From IMG/VR virus record IMGVR_UViG_3300027222_000006, positions 1 through 45,506 of that record: 45,506 bases of DNA; one strand, given 5' to 3'. Source of the stretch: a virus (lineage: Duplodnaviria; Caudoviricetes). The translations under genes and the position numbers were made by a program. Below the pieces are notes generated by a model. It was given only the letters and a program-made list of their open reading frames with translations. It was not told where the DNA came from and made no database searches. Of the stretch, positions 3,442 to 45,506 are shown one piece after another; position 1 is the stretch's first letter, and the number at the start of each line of letters is the position of its first letter.

Positions 3442-3515
3442 TGACCCGTACGAGATTCGAACTCGTGATCTTCTCCGTGAAAGGGAGATGTCCTAAACCG
3501 CTAGACGAACGGGCC
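3442..3515 (-). tRNA. trnE: tRNA-Glu(TTC), CCA not encoded
   Basis: GGCCCGTTCGTCTAGCGGTTTAGGACATCTCCCTTTCACGGAGAAGATCACGAGTTCGAATCTCGTACGGGTCA folds as a cloverleaf. Confidence 0.95.
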
Positions 3516-3527
3516 GAATATTATATA

Positions 3528-3794
3528 TTACCATTTACCAAGTGGACATTTTGAACGAGGTGAAAGTGTTTTTGCTGAAAGATTACAACCACAACCCCGT
3601 GTTAAATTTCCAGTAACTGTATGTGGTGCAACCTTCGTTGGATCGCATACAGAACCAGATCTTAGTCCACATTCATTACATTGATTAAGTCTTTTTTCTG
3701 AAAGTGCTTTTAATTGCGGATCAAGTGTATTAAACTTATCTTTAATTAAGTGTGCCCAACCTGTCAATATTTCATTGATTGTTTCCGGCTTCAC
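3528..3794 (-). CDS. Cys-rich putative metal-binding protein (88 aa)
   Basis: CNEC...C...GCGC...K......CPLGKW pattern. Confidence 0.75.
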   Translation of the reverse strand: MKPETINEILTGWAHLIKDKFNTLDPQLKALSEKRLNQCNECGLRSGSVCDPTKVAPHTVTGNLTRGCGCNLSAKTLSPRSKCPLGKW

Positions 3795-4104
3795 TTTCTA
3801 AAACATTTAATCTACGTGTGTTAGCATCAACAATAGAACGTGTACGATCTGTAAACGTAGCAACCTGTTGAAGTGACTCATTCAATTGTTGAATATCCTG
3901 AGTAAGTGCATCCATACGTGAAGAAAGTTCACGCATGTTTTGAATGTGAGCTGCCATACCTGATTCAAGGGTACTAATCCGCTCATTCAAATTCTCTTCA
4001 AATTCAAAATTCTCAAACGAAACATCCATAATATCATTGTTTATTTTGATATGTAAATATACCACTGCAATAATGGATGCTATTGATAATATAATTGAAA
4101 TCAT
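3772..4104 (-). CDS. Membrane-anchored coiled-coil protein (110 aa)
   Basis: N-terminal hydrophobic helix followed by heptad repeats; middle-type promoter at 4132-4158. Confidence 0.7.
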   Translation of the reverse strand: MISIILSIASIIAVVYLHIKINNDIMDVSFENFEFEENLNERISTLESGMAAHIQNMRELSSRMDALTQDIQQLNESLQQVATFTDRTRSIVDANTRRLNVLESEAGNNQ

Positions 4105-4131
4105 TTTTTAATAGATATTTTTTTATATCTT

Positions 4132-4158
4132 TTATACTTATTTAAATAAAAATGTTTC
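4132..4158 (-). promoter_or_regulatory. Putative middle promoter GAAAC-N17-TATAA
   Basis: Same motif and spacing at 5129-5155, 5453-5479, 5753-5779, 21456-21482 and 37477-37503; a TACAA variant at 41865-41891. Confidence 0.65.
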
Positions 4159-4164
4159 AAAAAT

Positions 4165-4195
4165 AAAAAAGGGTATACCTTTCGATATACCCTTT
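4165..4195 (-). terminator. Intrinsic terminator after the tRNA operon
   Basis: AAAGGGTATATC-GAAA-GGTATACCCTTTTTT hairpin with U-tract. Confidence 0.8.
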
Positions 4196-4213
4196 AGACC
4201 GGCAGTCAAGTAG

Positions 4214-4287
4214 TGGACCGTAACGGATTCGAACCGTTGACCCCCTGCGTGCAAGGCAGGTGCTCTAGCCAGCTGAGCTAACAGCCC
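4214..4287 (-). tRNA. trnA: tRNA-Ala(TGC), CCA not encoded
   Basis: GGGCTGTTAGCTCAGCTGGCTAGAGCACCTGCCTTGCACGCAGG...GGTTCGAATCC...GGTCCA; G3-U70 alanine identity pair present. Confidence 0.95.
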
Positions 4288-4377
4288 AAGTTGATTGGTA
4301 ATCAACATGCGATTGTTGAGGACAATCATAACCTCCACTTGGCTCCACCTTGTTTTTATAAGAGACAAGGAACTCTT

Positions 4378-4453
4378 TGGAGCGAAAGACCGGGTTCGAA
4401 CCGGCGACCCTGACCTTGGCAAGGTCATGCTCTACCAACTGAGCTACTTTCGC
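4378..4453 (-). tRNA. trnG: tRNA-Gly(GCC) with encoded CCA
   Basis: GCGAAAGTAGCTCAGTTGGTAGAGCATGACCTTGCCAAGGTCA...GGTTCGAACCC...TTTCGCTCCA. Confidence 0.95.
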
Positions 4454-4459
4454 ATTCTT

Positions 4460-4551
4460 GGGGCTTCTCCTCTTTAGCGCGCTTTCAGCATCAAGGACCC
4501 TACCTAAGCGATCCGTCGACCGTGCTCTTAGGGTTTTACGTTTACCTCCCC
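4460..4551 (-). ncRNA. Candidate structured ncRNA between tRNA-Thr and tRNA-Gly
   Basis: GC-rich spacer closed by GGGG/CCCC, with internal ACCCTA/TAGGGT, CCTAAG/CTTAGG and GCT-GAA-AGC pairings; no credible ORF. Confidence 0.4.
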
Positions 4552-4554
4552 ATT

Positions 4555-4630
4555 TGGAGCCTCTTGTCGGACTCGAACCAACGACCTACTGATTACAAAT
4601 CAGTGGCTCTACCAACTGAGCTAAAGAGGC
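4555..4630 (-). tRNA. trnT: tRNA-Thr(TGT) with encoded CCA
   Basis: GCCTCTTTAGCTCAGTTGGTAGAGCCACTGATTTGTAATCAGTAGG...GGTTCGAGTCC...AGAGGCTCCA. Confidence 0.95.
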
Positions 4631-4635
4631 ATTTT

Positions 4636-4706
4636 GACTTAACCACCTCCCTATCTGCAGATGCATGAGACTGCCGAGCTAATTGCATATACAGTCTAGT
4701 TAAGTC
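4636..4706 (-). ncRNA. Candidate tRNA-sized (71 nt) structured RNA with possible pseudoknot
   Basis: 10-bp closing stem GACTTAACTA/TGGTTAAGTC, inner stem GACTGT/GCAGTC and a crossing ATGCA/TGCAT pairing. Confidence 0.45.
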
Positions 4707-4762
4707 ATGGAAACGGTTCTGTTAAAGTGCTAGCCCCGTCCCCACGGCTAGACTCAGTACGA

Positions 4763-4963
4763 TTACTTTGCTGCGTCTGAAGCACCTGGACCCTGTACCA
4801 TGCCACCTTCTTCAGCTTCAACGTGACCTGGGCCAACGATGTCATCTTCGATAGGAGTAGCAACCACTGTAGTGTCAACAGTTGTTTCTTCAACTTGAGC
4901 AGCTTCTTCAGTACAAGCTACTGCAGCAAATGCTAGAGCAGCAAATAAAAGAACCTTTTTCAT
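4763..4963 (-). CDS. Small acidic lipoprotein (66 aa)
   Basis: MKKVLLFAALAFAAVA-C is a type II signal peptide with lipobox. The 5125 start in the ORF track runs through tRNA-Ser and is wrong. Confidence 0.85.
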   Translation of the reverse strand: MKKVLLFAALAFAAVACTEEAAQVEETTVDTTVVATPIEDDIVGPGHVEAEEGGMVQGPGASDAAK

Positions 4964-4984
4964 ATCTTTGTTAATTTTAAGGTT

Positions 4985-5009
4985 AAAGGGAACTCTATTA
5001 AGTTCCTTT
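4985..5009 (-). terminator. Hairpin 3' of tRNA-Ser (terminator or processing signal)
   Basis: AAAGGAACT-TAATAG-AGTTCCCTTT. Confidence 0.45.
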
Positions 5010-5010
5010 G

Positions 5011-5095
5011 CGGAGGCGGTAGGATTCGAACCTACGGACCTGTTACAGTCAACAGTTTTCAAGACTGCCGCGATCGACCACTCTGCCACGCCTCC
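5011..5095 (-). tRNA. trnS: tRNA-Ser(TGA), long variable arm, CCA not encoded
   Basis: GGAGGCGTGGCAGAGTGGTCGATCGCGGCAGTCTTGAAAACTGTT...GGTTCGAATCCTACCGCCTCCG. Confidence 0.95.
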
Positions 5096-5214
5096 TTTTG
5101 TTATTATCAATATTTCAAAGAACACAAATTATACATTGAATGTATTATTTGTTTCAGTTTTTGTTGAAATTTCTTTCAACTTTTGTTGCTCTAAGAGCGT
5201 ACACGTCTGGGTTG

Positions 5215-5288
5215 TGAACCCGACAGGATTCGAACCTGTGACCGTCTCATTAGAAGTGAGATGCTCTATCCAGCTGAGCTACGGGTCC
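5215..5288 (-). tRNA. trnR: tRNA-Arg(TCT), CCA not encoded
   Basis: GGACCCGTAGCTCAGCTGGATAGAGCATCTCACTTCTAATGAGA...GGTTCGAATCCTGTCGGGTTCA. Confidence 0.95.
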
Positions 5289-5310
5289 AAATCATTTTAG
5301 ATTTAGTTTG

Positions 5311-5392
5311 TGCGGATGAAAGGAATCGAACCTTCACTTCGTAAGAAACCAGATCCTAAGTCTGGCGCGTCTACCAATTTCGCCACATCCGC
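5311..5392 (-). tRNA. trnL: tRNA-Leu(TAG), CCA not encoded
   Basis: GCGGATGTGGCGAAATTGGTAGACGCGCCAGACTTAGGATCTGG...GGTTCGATTCCTTTCATCCGCA. Confidence 0.95.
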
Positions 5393-39873: not shown

Positions 39874-41091
39874 TTAAAAAAGCGCGGTGGAGTAAATAAG
39901 GTTCCTATCAATGTTGTGTAGACCAACAGCAGTTAACACCCTATTCATTGGATCGATAATACATTTTTCAAATTGTGTCTCATAGTCAACTGGTGGTGCA
40001 ATCTCATATGGATGATCACCTGGAAGATACGCAAACATATCTGATAAGTTATTTGGATCAATTGAATGATAAATCTTTAGCTTTTCGCCATTGCCAATCA
40101 TTCTGTATTTTGATTTATACTTCGTGTTATTATTGAGTAAGAAGTTATAATAACCCGCCGCTTTAACGTTTGGTGGACATTTCAATCCAAACTGGAATTC
40201 AATGTGGTCGTCAACAATGTATTTCTCAAGGTTGTTTGTACGACGGTTAAATGAAATATCATCCAGCTTAGCTAACTTAAACTCTTTCTTTGCATTCTTC
40301 AAAAACTTAACTAGTTTTTCTAATGTTTCAGCAGTTGGACCAGTTGGCTCCGTAAAGATAATCTTGAGTGCCTCGGCCAATTTCTTACGAGCAAATGTTG
40401 GGGTTGACGACTGGATAGTGTCAAATCCGATGGTCTTTACTCGGCTTAGAGGTTTGTGTCGCTGTGTCTTTGGAAGCTTATCATCCCATGCAATGTCTTG
40501 AATGTATTTCTTTTTAGACATCCAGATACCACCGTATGCAACTGTTTCAAGTTCAAATACAAGGAAGTTATCGGTGTTATTAGAATCTGCATATTTTTGC
40601 ATTGCTTTTGTAATGTAATCATTCAAACGGGATTCATACAATGCTAAAATAAATGTATCAATAGATGGTGCATTTTCTGGATCTTTCCAAACAATAGTAT
40701 TGTACAATTCATCAAACTGTACATAACAAGAATCTGTATCAATATAGATTACCGCGGGTTGGTGGCATTGTCCCTTAATTGATTGCACACCGAGTTGTTC
40801 ATGGATTTGACGGTCTTTATGCCAGAAATCTTGAACATATTTGTTCAAGATTTGCTCTGAATATAAAATAGCGTTCTGACTTTGGAGGGTAATAGATTCG
40901 GCAATATCAATGTTAAAGAAGTGAAACCACTTATTACCAAATGCACCATAGATTGAGTTGAGGGTTACCTTTACGGCTTGCTCATAAGCAGTGTACTTGG
41001 CAGACATTGTTTCATAATGTTCCGCCAAGCGCTGCAGATCTTCTTTACTTAGTGAATCAATTGGAGCTTCTTGTAATTGCTCTATTGTCAT
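39874..41091 (-). CDS. Family B DNA polymerase, C-terminal subunit (gp43B-like)
   Basis: Motif B KVTLNSIYGAFG, motif C YIDTDS and KKKY are present; exonuclease motifs and motif A are absent. Confidence 0.93.
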   Translation of the reverse strand: MTIEQLQEAPIDSLSKEDLQRLAEHYETMSAKYTAYEQAVKVTLNSIYGAFGNKWFHFFNIDIAESITLQSQNAILYSEQILNKYVQDFWHKDRQIHEQLGVQSIKGQCHQPAVIYIDTDSCYVQFDELYNTIVWKDPENAPSIDTFILALYESRLNDYITKAMQKYADSNNTDNFLVFELETVAYGGIWMSKKKYIQDIAWDDKLPKTQRHKPLSRVKTIGFDTIQSSTPTFARKKLAEALKIIFTEPTGPTAETLEKLVKFLKNAKKEFKLAKLDDISFNRRTNNLEKYIVDDHIEFQFGLKCPPNVKAAGYYNFLLNNNTKYKSKYRMIGNGEKLKIYHSIDPNNLSDMFAYLPGDHPYEIAPPVDYETQFEKCIIDPMNRVLTAVGLHNIDRNLIYSTALF

Positions 41092-41840
41092 TATTCAGCT
41101 GTTTGACAGGTTGCAATTGTGAGGAAGGTGTTAGAGTCATTTGACTTCATAACAACTTTATTGCCTGAAACATAAACACAGTATTCTTCGCGATCAAGTA
41201 GGTTCAAGTACTTCTTGTAAAGAGTTGCCTCTGAAGCAGAACCGTTAAAGCTTTGATTCGCCTGGTAATTATAAGTCTTACCTTTTACGCGGACTTCACT
41301 GTTAGATGCAGTGATTGAGAATGTTTCTTCTTTGTCAAGAGAGAATAGTGATTTGATTTTGCCAAGTGTATATGTGTCAAGTACAAAATCAAAGTCTGAA
41401 CCTTCACGGTCAAAGATAGTTTGCAACTGTGCGTCAGTTAGGTCTTTGAAACCAAGTGATGGGTCTGAACACGCCAATGTGATTTCGAGTTCATTATTGA
41501 ATAGACGCATTGAAGAGCACACAAAGTCTTCTTCATTTTCTTGGAATTCCATAACGGCTTGTACCTGGTCTGCATTAAACATTTTCAATGCATCAAGAAC
41601 TTTGTTTGCATCAAAGAACGCAACTTTCAATTCTTTACCTTCTGGGAGTGCCTGAGAAATAGAGAAGATGTCTTTAATCTCTACTGTGTGCAATTTGACA
41701 GCATCACGTTGTGGTAGATAAACTGCAGAGGTAACTGCACCCGTGCGAAGTTTGAAATACAAAAACGTGTCAATAGCTTTTAGGCGGTTGATAAAATCAA
41801 CAAAGCTATTTTGGTCAATGCGATTAATTTCTAATTTCAT
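41091..41840 (-). CDS. Probable sliding clamp (gp45-like)
   Basis: 249 aa with an alpha/beta two-domain pattern, adjacent to the polymerase; a clamp loader is present in the window. Confidence 0.55.
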   Translation of the reverse strand: MKLEINRIDQNSFVDFINRLKAIDTFLYFKLRTGAVTSAVYLPQRDAVKLHTVEIKDIFSISQALPEGKELKVAFFDANKVLDALKMFNADQVQAVMEFQENEEDFVCSSMRLFNNELEITLACSDPSLGFKDLTDAQLQTIFDREGSDFDFVLDTYTLGKIKSLFSLDKEETFSITASNSEVRVKGKTYNYQANQSFNGSASEATLYKKYLNLLDREEYCVYVSGNKVVMKSNDSNTFLTIATCQTAE

Positions 41841-41891
41841 GTGGTATTTTTTTAAGTATAGTTATTGTATGTAAATAAATGTAAATGTTTC

Positions 41892-41980
41892 AAAAAAAGC
41901 GAAGCCGGGAAGTAGCGAACCCCCGGCCTCTTCCGTTAACTATAACGGTCCTAAGGGTGGCCATCACAGCCACACCCTCT
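41892..41980 (-). ncRNA. Three-hairpin 3' element of nrdA with segments antisense to 23S rRNA H69-H71, ending in a terminator
   Basis: + strand 41937-41956 TAACTATAACGGTCCTAAGG and 41912-41919 GTAGCGAA equal 23S rRNA about 1911-1930 and 1930-1937 (E. coli numbering). G-U pairs and the U-tract place the RNA on the minus strand. Confidence 0.7.
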
Positions 41981-43786
41981 TTATCCGTCGCAGCTTAAGC
42001 AATCTGGATCTGTTGCTCTCGTTGCAATATCACCTCTCAGTACAGATTCTGTTCGCATATAGTAAAGTGTTTTTACACCTTGCTTGTACGCTTCCAAGTG
42101 TACTTGGTTGATGAATTTCGGAGTTGCTTCTGTTGGGAATGCCAAATTCAATGAAACTGACTGGTCAATGTATTGTTGTCTAATACCAGCTTGACGAACA
42201 AGTTCCATTTGATTTAGTTCCTTGAATGTTAAAAATACATTCTTGATTGGCGTCCACTCATCCTTTTGAATGTCTGTTAGTTTAGCCCATTCTTTAGCAT
42301 CAATATAAACACCCTTAGTTGAATACTTACCGTACCATTTATCAAGTGCTTCTATATCCTGGACTGAACCACCGTCAATAAGGATTTGATCCCAAATTTC
42401 TTTTGTATTAATACCTGCATGCGTCAAGAAATCTTCAAGAGTTGGATTCTTACGGATGAAAGTACCTTTAGCTGTTTGCTCAGTGAATACGTTAGCAGCC
42501 CATGGTTCAATACCCGGTGAAACGTTACCAGATAGTTTTGAGTTTGATACCGTTGGTGCAATAGCACGTAGGTGTGTATTTCTCATACCTGTCCCAACAC
42601 ACCAAAGTGGTTCACCAAATTCAGTGGCCATGTCTCTCGAGGCGCGTTCTGATTCAACTTTGATTTGTGAGAAAATCTTGCGAGTTTCAAACTGAGCACC
42701 CATTGAATCAAATGGAATATTACGTTCTTGTAAGTATGTATGCCATCCTAAAACACCAAGACCAAGCGCTCTACCTTTTTCAGCTGAGCGGACAGAGTTC
42801 TCAAACCCACGCATATATTTTGCACGAGTGATGAATTCTTCTAGCACACCGTCTAGGAACCAAGTTGCAGTATAAACAAGATCGGTATCTTTCCACTCGT
42901 CATACTTTGCAAGGTTGATTGAAGACAAGCAACAAACAAATGAGTGATTCTCATCAGTGTGAAGTGTAATCTCAGAACAAATATTAGTCATGTAAACTTT
43001 AAGACCATTGTTCTTGTATGCATCCGGATTTGCGCGGTTGATATTACCCTTGAACATAATGTATGGTTCGCCAGTCGCTCTACGCTTACGAAGAACCGCA
43101 GCCCAACGCTTACGTGCTTCTTTATCACCAGCTTCAAGCTTTTGCATAAAACCATCTGATACAACAATTGATTGGTGCATATTCAAGGATTGGCGGTTCA
43201 CATCACCCTTAGGTTCACGAATCTCAAGCCATTCCCAGAAGTCACCGTGTTCAATATCAATATTAACAGCTGCTGCACCTCTACGTACAGAACCCTGGTT
43301 TGTTGCAAGGATTGATGAATCGTAGATTTTGATAAATGGTACAACACCGTCTGATGTACCATTCTGTGTAATCTTAGAACCCGCTGGTCTAATTTGATTT
43401 ACACCAATACCCACACCACCGCCGTGTTTAGCAAGTAGCATCATCTCAAGATTCTTTGTACCAATCTCATGGATTGAATCACCAACGTCAATACCAAAAC
43501 AAGAAATAGGTAAACCACGTTCAGTACCTGTATTTGAGAATACTGGAGTTGCAAGATTTAACCAACCTCTCCAAATATAATCATAAAACTTGCTAGCTAA
43601 TTCTGGTCTACCAAGTCTTTTGGCTACTGTTGTTGCGACGCGCCAATAAGCGTCTTTTGGTGTTTCATCTTTAAGTAAATATCCTTTAGATACTGTCTTA
43701 ACGTAGATTTCGGTATTACCCCAAATAGGGAAATCAACACCTAGTTCCCAGCCAAGCTCAGCACCGTAATTATGTATATCTGTCAT
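41981..43786 (-). CDS. nrdA: Class I ribonucleotide reductase alpha subunit, short form without ATP cone
   Basis: PISCF, GGGVG, RRGA, TNICSEI, CCLSS, AIAPT.S.S, DQSVSLN, KTLYY and C-terminal CLSCDG; start revised to MTDIHN. Confidence 0.97.
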   Translation of the reverse strand: MTDIHNYGAELGWELGVDFPIWGNTEIYVKTVSKGYLLKDETPKDAYWRVATTVAKRLGRPELASKFYDYIWRGWLNLATPVFSNTGTERGLPISCFGIDVGDSIHEIGTKNLEMMLLAKHGGGVGIGVNQIRPAGSKITQNGTSDGVVPFIKIYDSSILATNQGSVRRGAAAVNIDIEHGDFWEWLEIREPKGDVNRQSLNMHQSIVVSDGFMQKLEAGDKEARKRWAAVLRKRRATGEPYIMFKGNINRANPDAYKNNGLKVYMTNICSEITLHTDENHSFVCCLSSINLAKYDEWKDTDLVYTATWFLDGVLEEFITRAKYMRGFENSVRSAEKGRALGLGVLGWHTYLQERNIPFDSMGAQFETRKIFSQIKVESERASRDMATEFGEPLWCVGTGMRNTHLRAIAPTVSNSKLSGNVSPGIEPWAANVFTEQTAKGTFIRKNPTLEDFLTHAGINTKEIWDQILIDGGSVQDIEALDKWYGKYSTKGVYIDAKEWAKLTDIQKDEWTPIKNVFLTFKELNQMELVRQAGIRQQYIDQSVSLNLAFPTEATPKFINQVHLEAYKQGVKTLYYMRTESVLRGDIATRATDPDCLSCDG

Positions 43787-43796
43787 AGTCTTTATA

Positions 43797-44801
43797 TTAA
43801 TCGAACAAATCGTCTTCGTCCCAGTTTTCGCCTTCACCAGCTTTAGAGTAGTCGGTTGGTCTTACCGCAAAGAAGTCAGTGTGTGTATGACCTCCAGTCA
43901 AATGGTAGAACCAATCAAGCGCTGCAGCTTGGTCTTCATTATAGTCAAAAACAGGATCAATGTTTAGCTCTGCAAGCTTTTCATTTGCTCTTTTTTTAAT
44001 AAAATGTTTTAGGTCGTCCGCCTTCATATTTTCAAGATCGCCTAGCTCGAACATTTTATCAATATAGTTCATTTCCATTTCAACCATAAGCTTTGCAGCT
44101 TCAACCACTTCGTGCTTTACCTCACCTAAAAGTTCAGGATATTCTTCACACATATGGCGGAAAAGTTGGCAACCCATCTTTGAGTGTAGTGATTCGTCAC
44201 GTACAGACCACTTCATTTGCTGACCAATGCCCTTAAGCATATTGCGCATTTGAAATGAATAAAGTACAGCAAACGATGAATACAATGCAACGCCTTCAGC
44301 AAATGCTGAAAAGATAGCTAATGAACGTGCGACCTGTCTACGTGCTCTTGCACTTGTTTGAAGATCTTCCCATGTCCAATCAGCTTCTGTATTCATCAAG
44401 AATTCAAATCTTGCAGCAGTTGATGGTTCATGTAAGAATGCTTTAAAATCTTCAAGTCCTAACGTTTCATTTAAGTATGAATAAGCAGTTGCGTGAATTG
44501 TTTCTTGTGAACCAAACATCATTGCCATTTGCTTAATCTCGTGTTTAGGAAACCATTTAGTTACCATACCAGTCCAATAATCAGATACCGCACATTCAGT
44601 CTGTGCAAAACCCAATAGGATATTACCCACAAGATTCTTTTCTTCTTTTGTCAATGCCTCATTCCAATCTTTGACATCACCCTGCATTGAAATCTCAGTG
44701 TGTAGCCAAAATGCTTGTGCTTGCTTCAACCAACCTTCATTATAATAAACCGGATATTCAAACGGTTTATATTCTATTCTTTCTTCAAATAATTTTGACA
44801 T
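43797..44801 (-). CDS. nrdB: Class I ribonucleotide reductase beta subunit
   Basis: KPFEYP, FAQTE, ETIHATAY, EGVALYSSF, RDESLH and DFF..R.TDY motifs. Confidence 0.97.
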   Translation of the reverse strand: MSKLFEERIEYKPFEYPVYYNEGWLKQAQAFWLHTEISMQGDVKDWNEALTKEEKNLVGNILLGFAQTECAVSDYWTGMVTKWFPKHEIKQMAMMFGSQETIHATAYSYLNETLGLEDFKAFLHEPSTAARFEFLMNTEADWTWEDLQTSARARRQVARSLAIFSAFAEGVALYSSFAVLYSFQMRNMLKGIGQQMKWSVRDESLHSKMGCQLFRHMCEEYPELLGEVKHEVVEAAKLMVEMEMNYIDKMFELGDLENMKADDLKHFIKKRANEKLAELNIDPVFDYNEDQAAALDWFYHLTGGHTHTDFFAVRPTDYSKAGEGENWDEDDLFD

Positions 44802-44841
44802 TTTCAAAAATATTGTTTTTTTAAAAAACCTCTTTAGACGA

Positions 44842-44935: not shown

Positions 44936-45506
44936 CTATAATTTAGCTAATCTATCTTTTACCTCTTTTGCCTTTGTATAATAATCATAAGAAGTTTTCT
45001 TATAATCTTTACGCTGGTCATAAAGGTCACTCAAGATTCGCTTAAGAATAGAATCCTTTTTATCGTATACAACGCCATTACTGCATACAATTTCATCTTC
45101 ATTCTTTTTGCGTTCTGGAATCTGTGAAACTGGAATAATTTCTTTATATGAATCAGGCGAAATATTAAATTGTCGCATGATCGATGGGTATAGAGACGCA
45201 AAGTCAAATGCAGATACACCTTGATAGAAACCAACCTTTGGTTGCTTTACATATGCACCGGCAAACTTGCCGTCTTTTTCACCACCTTCTTTACCTTCAG
45301 AAGCAACACGCCTGTTTTGTTCCGCGAGTTTACGGGCGATGAGCGCTTCAGTCACTGATACCGGGGACGCCGCTTTATAGAGTGGCATCTTGGTAATCGA
45401 AGCTAGTGTAAGAAGTACTTCCATTGATTTTAGCTTCTGGTCAATATAGTAAACCAGAATAGAGTCAACTACGTTATAGTAGATGTACTTAACAAAATCT
45501 TGCTCA
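44936..45506 (-). CDS. Family B DNA polymerase, N-terminal subunit (gp43A-like; 5' end beyond the window)
   Basis: The frame stays open to the right edge (EQDFVKYIYYNVVDS, ExoIII YNxxD). GAYVK.P, motif A DFASLYPSIMRQFNISPD and L..LYDQRK follow, then a stop. Confidence 0.93.
   Translation of the reverse strand, partial: EQDFVKYIYYNVVDSILVYYIDQKLKSMEVLLTLASITKMPLYKAASPVSVTEALIARKLAEQNRRVASEGKEGGEKDGKFAGAYVKQPKVGFYQGVSAFDFASLYPSIMRQFNISPDSYKEIIPVSQIPERKKNEDEIVCSNGVVYDKKDSILKRILSDLYDQRKDYKKTSYDYYTKAKEVKDRLAKL

Follow-up and report, generated by a model that had tools for sequence, protein, structure and literature searches.

The analyzed stretch of DNA (the window, 45,506 nt) is a contig of a T4-like myovirus with genes for the portal, gp23 capsid protein, sheath, terminase, helicase, a RecA-like protein and ribonucleotide reductase (RNR). 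Its source is an uncultured estuarine jumbo phage; the estimated completeness of the contig was about 16%, which gives a genome of roughly 280 kb. The nearest cultured neighbors by NrdA were Flavobacterium and Cellulophaga phages, with Flavobacterium phage immuto being the closest (58.5%), and the nearest neighbors by capsid protein were uncultured huge phages, Lak phages, and one Tenacibaculum phage; judging from these two proteins, the host is likely a member of Bacteroidota. Seven tRNA genes were clustered on the minus strand at 3442–5392. The motif GATATATA, a likely late promoter in this group of phages, was found at 13 sites from 1118 to 32908, on the minus strand only and mostly ahead of structural genes; the window scan revealed none near the element described below.

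The genes nrdB and nrdA form one unit, followed by a gene for a 249-aa protein (Table 1), and this block is flanked by two pieces of a family B DNA polymerase (44936–45424 and 39874–41091). The 249-aa protein had 357 relatives, hypothetical or unnamed except for one with an unrelated label; its assignment as a sliding clamp is a guess from size and position. The element, 89 nt in length (minus strand, 41980–41892), starts directly past the TAA codon of nrdA and probably represents the 3′ end of the nrdB–nrdA message or a product of this message. Its minus-strand sequence and its position after the stop codon, both re-read from the window, were as given in the first-pass annotation, which had been made from the sequence alone. 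In relatives lacking the element, sigma70-like sites similar to the one listed in Table 1 also come after plain terminators.

The predicted minus-strand fold consisted of three hairpins with an energy of −40 kcal/mol (z −3.4), compared with −28.4 kcal/mol for the plus strand. In this fold, the CCUU at the start of the 20-nt complement was paired into the first hairpin, and AGGA was the only part of module A predicted to be unpaired in this copy. Model R1, whose training set includes this copy, scored positions 41892–41957 at 78.7 bits and found no second copy in the 45.5-kb window.

Table 1. Location of the element, its parts, and the neighboring genes in the window
Feature	Position	Strand	Basis
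Whole element: three hairpins and U-tract, 3′ end of the nrdB–nrdA unit	41892..41980	-	sequence, predicted fold
P1 hairpin, variable across the family, missing from some members	41953..41978	-	predicted fold, family comparison
Module A, UUAGGACC, complement of 23S 1921–1928	41947..41954	-	55 protein-anchored variants
Perfect 20-nt complement of 23S 1911–1930, specific to this copy	41937..41956	-	K-12 rrlH comparison
P2 hairpin; loop AUAGUU (41943–41938) complements H69 loop 1912–1917	41933..41948	-	covariation
P3, terminator-like hairpin displaying module C	41901..41930	-	stem pair types, G-U vs A-C
Module C, UUCGCUAC, complement of 23S 1930–1937	41912..41919	-	protein-anchored variants; free-module test
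U7 tract	41892..41898	-	sequence
nrdA, class Ia ribonucleotide reductase large subunit	41981..43837	-	Pfam PF02867 and PF00317
nrdB, small subunit, upstream in the nrdB–nrdA unit	43797..44807	-	Pfam PF00268
249-aa protein downstream of the element	41091..41840	-	no Pfam match
Sigma70-like site (TTGAAA, 18 nt, TACAAT) for the next gene, outside the RNA	41864..41893	-	inferred by reading the sequence

Complementarity to 23S rRNA and conserved modules

Minus-strand positions 41956–41937 complement E. coli 23S rRNA 1911–1930, and positions 41919–41912 complement 1930–1937 (numbering of K-12 rrlH, 2904 nt). The comparison with rrlH bore out the perfect 20-nt complement reported earlier, and the extension to 23 of 24 nt with one extra A was also seen. 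The 23S stretch complemented by the 20-mer presumably belongs to the I-CeuI site. With a 2896-nt E. coli record, 1.5e-4 20-mer matches were expected for the window against both strands of 23S, and none of 60 Markov-simulated windows had a match longer than 17 nt. For modules A and C, a single target each was found in E. coli 23S rRNA, and none in 16S rRNA or on the transcribed strand of the window, a contig covering about 16% of the genome. The modules are short, with predicted pairing energies of −12, −11, and −5 kcal/mol. The rRNA target was the same in E. coli, Rufibacter, Thermomicrobium, Fusobacterium, and Clostridioides, while Pseudarthrobacter differed at the H69 stem; rRNA of the five further taxa came from plasmid records, and a degenerate rRNA pattern matched only three genome_contigs loci. 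The adjacent anti-rRNA segment, described earlier as moved downstream to form exactly the loop of the terminator, is indeed displaced into the terminator loop, which the predicted fold shrinks to 5 nt.

The element is a copy of a real, widespread, and apparently undescribed phage RNA family. The search for paired anti-rRNA blocks outside this contig, proposed in the first-pass annotation, did reveal homologues: a strict version of the permuted pattern recovered 33 viral loci, nrdA being the preceding gene in 32, and a looser one (modules A and C in permuted order) gave about 550 viral stretches, of which 120 were fetched. Identical copies of the element were present in two other contigs (L010 and L025) and diverged copies in 30 more; an assembly chimera or vector was ruled out by the diverged copies with covarying stems together with the identical ones. 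When the CC of module A was swapped for nine other dinucleotides, a total of 37 matches was obtained, about four for each, so that about 16 chance matches are expected for the shorter looser pattern, against the approximately 550 found. A stem of at least 7 bp surrounded module C in 82 of 92 distinct true-pattern matches and in 1 of 27 controls. When the search left module C free, 97 of the 120 loci (64 of 83 distinct) nevertheless had it; among the others are some family members in which module C is altered, for example L264 and L279. These two loci, as well as L228, L273, and L186, have changed module C loops, some of which are incompatible with rRNA pairing at one position. A search for a recurring 9-mer that might mark a second anti-rRNA RNA, up to 300 nt away from 102 elements, gave none (top count 5).

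In order to avoid motif bias, loci were also collected with proteins as queries, namely NrdA (80 loci), the downstream protein (21 loci), and an unrelated 175-aa protein (80 loci). Elements with no more than three mismatches, a filter which more degenerate copies would escape, were present in 32/80, 7/21, and 77/80 of these loci, respectively, after removal of a false match (L425). Among the 55 distinct protein-anchored elements that remained, 434 of 440 cells facing 1921–1928 were Watson–Crick, 6 were G-U, and none was mismatched; all 385 cells facing 1930–1936 were Watson–Crick. The few core changes seen stay G-U compatible with the rRNA. The six G-U cells correspond to about 2–4 independent events, which are transitions, and are therefore a weak test of pairing. 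Positions 1916–1920 drift among the protein-anchored variants, with mismatches facing 1918 and 1919 in 14 and 12 of 56 rows, respectively. In the nrdA group, the letters facing 1918/1919 change jointly with their P2 partners: two of the five P2 pairs change on both sides (19 cells), a value reached in none of 500 shuffles. All Watson–Crick pair types occur along the P3 stem. Covariation of stems around fixed anti-rRNA modules, which the annotation had put forward as a check, was thus seen for both P2 and P3 in the protein-anchored sample.

The P2 loop AGUU (anti-1912–1915) was kept in 25 of 26 variants of the nrdA group, so the complementarity to the H69 loop noted in the first reading is retained there. 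In the freshwater group, GUU was kept in 28 of 29 variants and AGUU in 7 of 29; the AGUU loop was also missing from two pattern-found members, L128 and L139. The 20-nt complement did not hold up as a conserved unit: among 172 variants, the full 20-mer occurred in one and the inner 18-mer in ten. Since the full 20-mer is rare and the short modules are kept, the selected unit, as judged from these alignments, is three short modules (anti-1921–1928, loop AGUU, and loop UCGCUAC, anti-1930–1936) rather than one long complement.

Two main architectures were found among 142 variants. The short type (122/142) has a terminator-like hairpin at the end, followed by a U-tract in 119 of 122 variants. The longer type (20/142) keeps modules A and C; in the 17 members aligned, module A sits inside a loop of about 19 nt, and the terminal structure is a pseudoknot, whose two sides change together, with no U-tract. 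A third layout was found at L006:4001–4075 (minus strand) after the gene for the terminase large subunit: in it, module A is interrupted by 7 inserted nucleotides, and the perfect complement of the 5′ strand of H69 is longer. P3 stems contained 37 G-U pairs against 6 A-C pairs, which, along with the U-tracts, identifies the antisense strand as the functional one, in agreement with the earlier proposal. Folding energy alone was a poor test of the strand (87/142). A reading of the P3 loop as a T-loop was dropped because the closing pair varies.

Gene context, inheritance, and host matching

Genes of many kinds precede the element, among them nrdA and those for a gp19-like tail tube, a terminase, a LysM endolysin, and numerous unknown proteins; for some copies, no gene lies immediately upstream. 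In total, 139 of 165 variants were located no more than 45 nt from a stop codon, which in some of them is provided by the UAG of module A. The other 26 were farther from any gene, 11 of them with a putative promoter-like motif just upstream. At L171, L224, L241, and L287, another terminator-like hairpin with its U-tract immediately precedes the element, and no promoter would fit between the two.

No element was found in 48 of 80 nrdA loci, the nearest relatives included. In a quick NrdA tree, 25 of 62 rows carried the element, for which four changes were counted, and a plain terminator stands in the two rows closest to our phage. The element is inherited and lost, and is not required. A role specific to the RNR mRNA, suggested earlier, is not supported, since the element follows many kinds of genes and the nearest NrdA relatives lack it. 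In four close relatives (L002, L004, L011, and L026), another NrdA subtype, ending in ECASCEA, occupies the same site with the element still attached, which indicates that nrdA was swapped and the element stayed.

Sequence of the phage was present in RNA libraries from the estuary: contigs from 8 of the 17 listed runs spanned portions of nrdA, of the element, and of the following gene. Their depth of 2–8 does not resolve the ends, strand, or level of any RNA, and no discrete RNA was seen in them. Two RNA-library contigs cross the terminator and may represent read-through or DNA.

We failed to find the family in cultured phages: a blastn comparison of four variants with 50,697 phage records returned only rRNA or weak matches, the pattern was absent from 9 chosen cultured phage records, and the model from 5. 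The strict pattern, which covers one subtype only, had no match in genome_contigs. The loose pattern matched 10 of 401 genomes of one phylum other than Bacteroidota, below the reversed control, and the model gave no match there with E<0.6. In Gordonia phage Commandaria (L560:701–734), a terminator-like hairpin after the small terminase gene has a loop with 6 of 7 module C letters and lacks module A; it may be a chance occurrence or a reduced form in a cultured phage.

Variants matching the H69 of Actinobacteria were searched for in two designs. The first gave no actinobacterial-type variant (0 TG among the 37 matches); the second, which used the freedom of positions 1918–1920, gave 26 viral matches. 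One of them, L517:1199–1262, is an actinobacterial-type element located 5 nt past the stop codon of a LysM endolysin gene on a contig with a G+C content of 68% and a WhiB gene. It has a 14-bp hairpin around module C, and its predicted pairing energy was −18.9 kcal/mol with the actinobacterial target and −15.2 kcal/mol with that of E. coli; the 5′ block of L517 prefers the actinobacterial target, and that of the window the E. coli type. Model R1 does not score L517, which may be a distant or independent form of the element. It is a single case: no further host-matched variants were found among the 26 viral and 22 metagenome matches. Seven low-GC contigs (L512, L513, L514, L520, L522, L524, and L534) match the actinobacterial-type pattern with an 8-bp stem and pass the stem filter; they were provisionally counted as chance matches, lying antisense inside a long coding frame.

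Relation to described RNAs

A search of Rfam 15 identified only tRNAs in the window, with a best score near the element of 19.1 bits against a threshold of 50; no Rfam family was matched, in line with the first-pass annotation, which recognized no described family. CopA/CopT, RNA I/RNA II, and OxyS-fhlA are loop-presenting antisense RNAs with mRNAs or primer RNAs as targets. The element resembles them in its short loop seeds, variable scaffold, and terminator end, and would share a two-site contact with OxyS; seeds displayed in the loops of a covarying scaffold, a feature of such RNAs, are present in the family. It differs in that, among E. coli rRNAs and the transcribed strand of the window, 23S rRNA was the sole matching target, and in that it is not encoded opposite its target. 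By analogy, the element would work like a loop-presenting antisense RNA, outside every described family compared.

Archaeal and eukaryotic C/D and H/ACA guides likewise carry short rRNA-complementary blocks, two of which flank one junction. The element, however, comes from a bacterial virus, has no Rfam match, and has no conserved partner enzyme nearby; no C/D or H/ACA model matched it, with a weak SNORD58 score of 16.7 bits against 42. Group I introns at 23S 1917–1951, with their internal guide sequences, concern the same rRNA region, and the blocks of the element also complement both sides of a junction, but the element is only 70–100 nt long and has no catalytic core. An A, not a group-I-type G, faces U1923 (53/55 variants) and U1931 (55/55). 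The group I catalytic core comprises at least 250 nt according to the size range in the available text of PMC10964413.

PeSL of T4-like phages is a cassette of a terminator stem-loop and a promoter, repeated in the genome; rRNA is not mentioned in the available part of that report (PMC4122927). As far as this part goes, the element is similar in being a stem-loop terminator followed by an inferred sigma70-like promoter between genes of T4-like phages, and different in being single per 45.5-kb contig and per fetched locus (the genome is incomplete) and in having two additional hairpins, which carry invariant anti-rRNA modules. T4 also encodes rnaC and rnaD, small stable RNAs whose function is unknown; the T4 genome had no pattern match and the rnaC/rnaD region no model match. 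In the comparison with the 8,495 IMG/VR candidates for viral structured RNAs of Fremin 2023, which covered tables, no entry matched the motif; the family may be an unannotated candidate within that set.

Possible action on the ribosome

We estimate the probability that this phage RNA pairs with 23S rRNA at roughly 0.7, on the strength of the conserved modules and their targets. The element RNA would pair with the H69–H70 region of host 50S subunits that are free or not yet mature. The two loops would nucleate on 1912–1916 and 1930–1937, after which module A would zip across 1921–1928 and open the base of H69. The paired 50S would be held out of 70S ribosomes, and translating 70S would be spared; the phage would gain by stopping maturation of new ribosomes and redirecting host resources. 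The H69–H70 region folds last, which would make late precursors and free 50S the likeliest partners; H68–H71 are disordered in late 50S precursors of Bacillus subtilis and Flavobacterium johnsoniae in the available parts of two reports (PMC3737534, PMC11851116). That pairing holds free or immature 50S out of 70S is a tentative proposal, which we put somewhat below even odds; a lytic phage needs ribosomes, and the direction of the effect is therefore uncertain.

The same need for working ribosomes would suit an RNA that pairs in the same way as a shield or chaperone, protecting H69–H70 from abortive-infection RNases or keeping subunits intact, and the sequence evidence for this is the same as that for holding 50S apart. 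An RNase cutting H69 is known for eukaryotic ribosomes, as stated in the available text of PMC13189344; no anti-phage H69 nuclease was found in the literature searched. It is also general knowledge that H69 forms bridge B2a, which a paired H69 should not do, and we regard protection as distinctly unlikely. The location of 139 of 165 variants within 45 nt of a stop codon, the use of the module A UAG as a stop in some, and the absence of late-promoter-like motifs near the element in the window would fit a tether in cis, in which the 3′ end of an mRNA holds the 50S released at the stop codon and aids recycling or re-initiation on phage messages. Such a tether is improbable given the 26 variants farther from any gene, 11 of them with putative promoters, and the mutually unrelated upstream genes. 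As two duplexes meet at 1929–1930 and pairing is looser at 1916–1920, resembling a guide pocket, the RNA might instead guide a nuclease or a modifying enzyme of the phage to the 1929/1930 junction or the H69 loop uridines; with no conserved enzyme among the adjacent genes and no C/D or H/ACA family match, this is very improbable.

The remaining explanations dispense with pairing. The element might have arisen by capture of an inverted piece of rDNA, or as a convergent motif, and be kept on a terminator as a protein-binding or 3′-end-protecting signal. Its dispensability and patchy occurrence, its location mostly where any terminator would sit, and the drift at 1916–1920, as in a decaying relic, are consistent with such a signal. 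It is nevertheless unlikely, because module C is out of rRNA order and in a loop, three modules map to adjacent rRNA segments in at least two architectures, core changes preserve pairing, and the L517 variant follows host rRNA. This copy also holds 20 contiguous bp of what is presumably the I-CeuI site, as would be expected of a DNA-level decoy for a homing endonuclease of this type in rDNA or of a plus-strand mimic of H69; both are extremely improbable, since the 20 bp are kept in a single variant of the 172, and the G-U bias and U-tracts point to an antisense-strand RNA.

To our knowledge, regulation by an RNA that base-pairs to the functional core of 23S rRNA has no natural example in bacteria or phages. 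The literature searched, which covered few subscription papers, contained no account of a phage-encoded RNA complementary to 23S rRNA. A synthetic PNA against H69 inhibits growth of E. coli, as cited from Kulik 2017 in the available part of a review (PMC7038079), which indicates that the site is targetable in cells. Both agents are antisense to H69; the PNA is a man-made single oligomer, whereas the phage element extends to 1937. Returning to the reading in which the RNA pairs with 50S, we consider the chances about even that large phages of aquatic habitats, with hosts from more than one phylum, carry natural anti-ribosomal RNAs, which would grip the intersubunit face of 23S rRNA by several loops tuned to the H69 of the host and would control 50S maturation or subunit joining without a protein. 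If the pairing is real, the family would let phages act on ribosome assembly or on the joining of subunits through RNA alone, across hundreds of genomes, and would represent an evolved design for a target so far reached only by synthetic oligomers.
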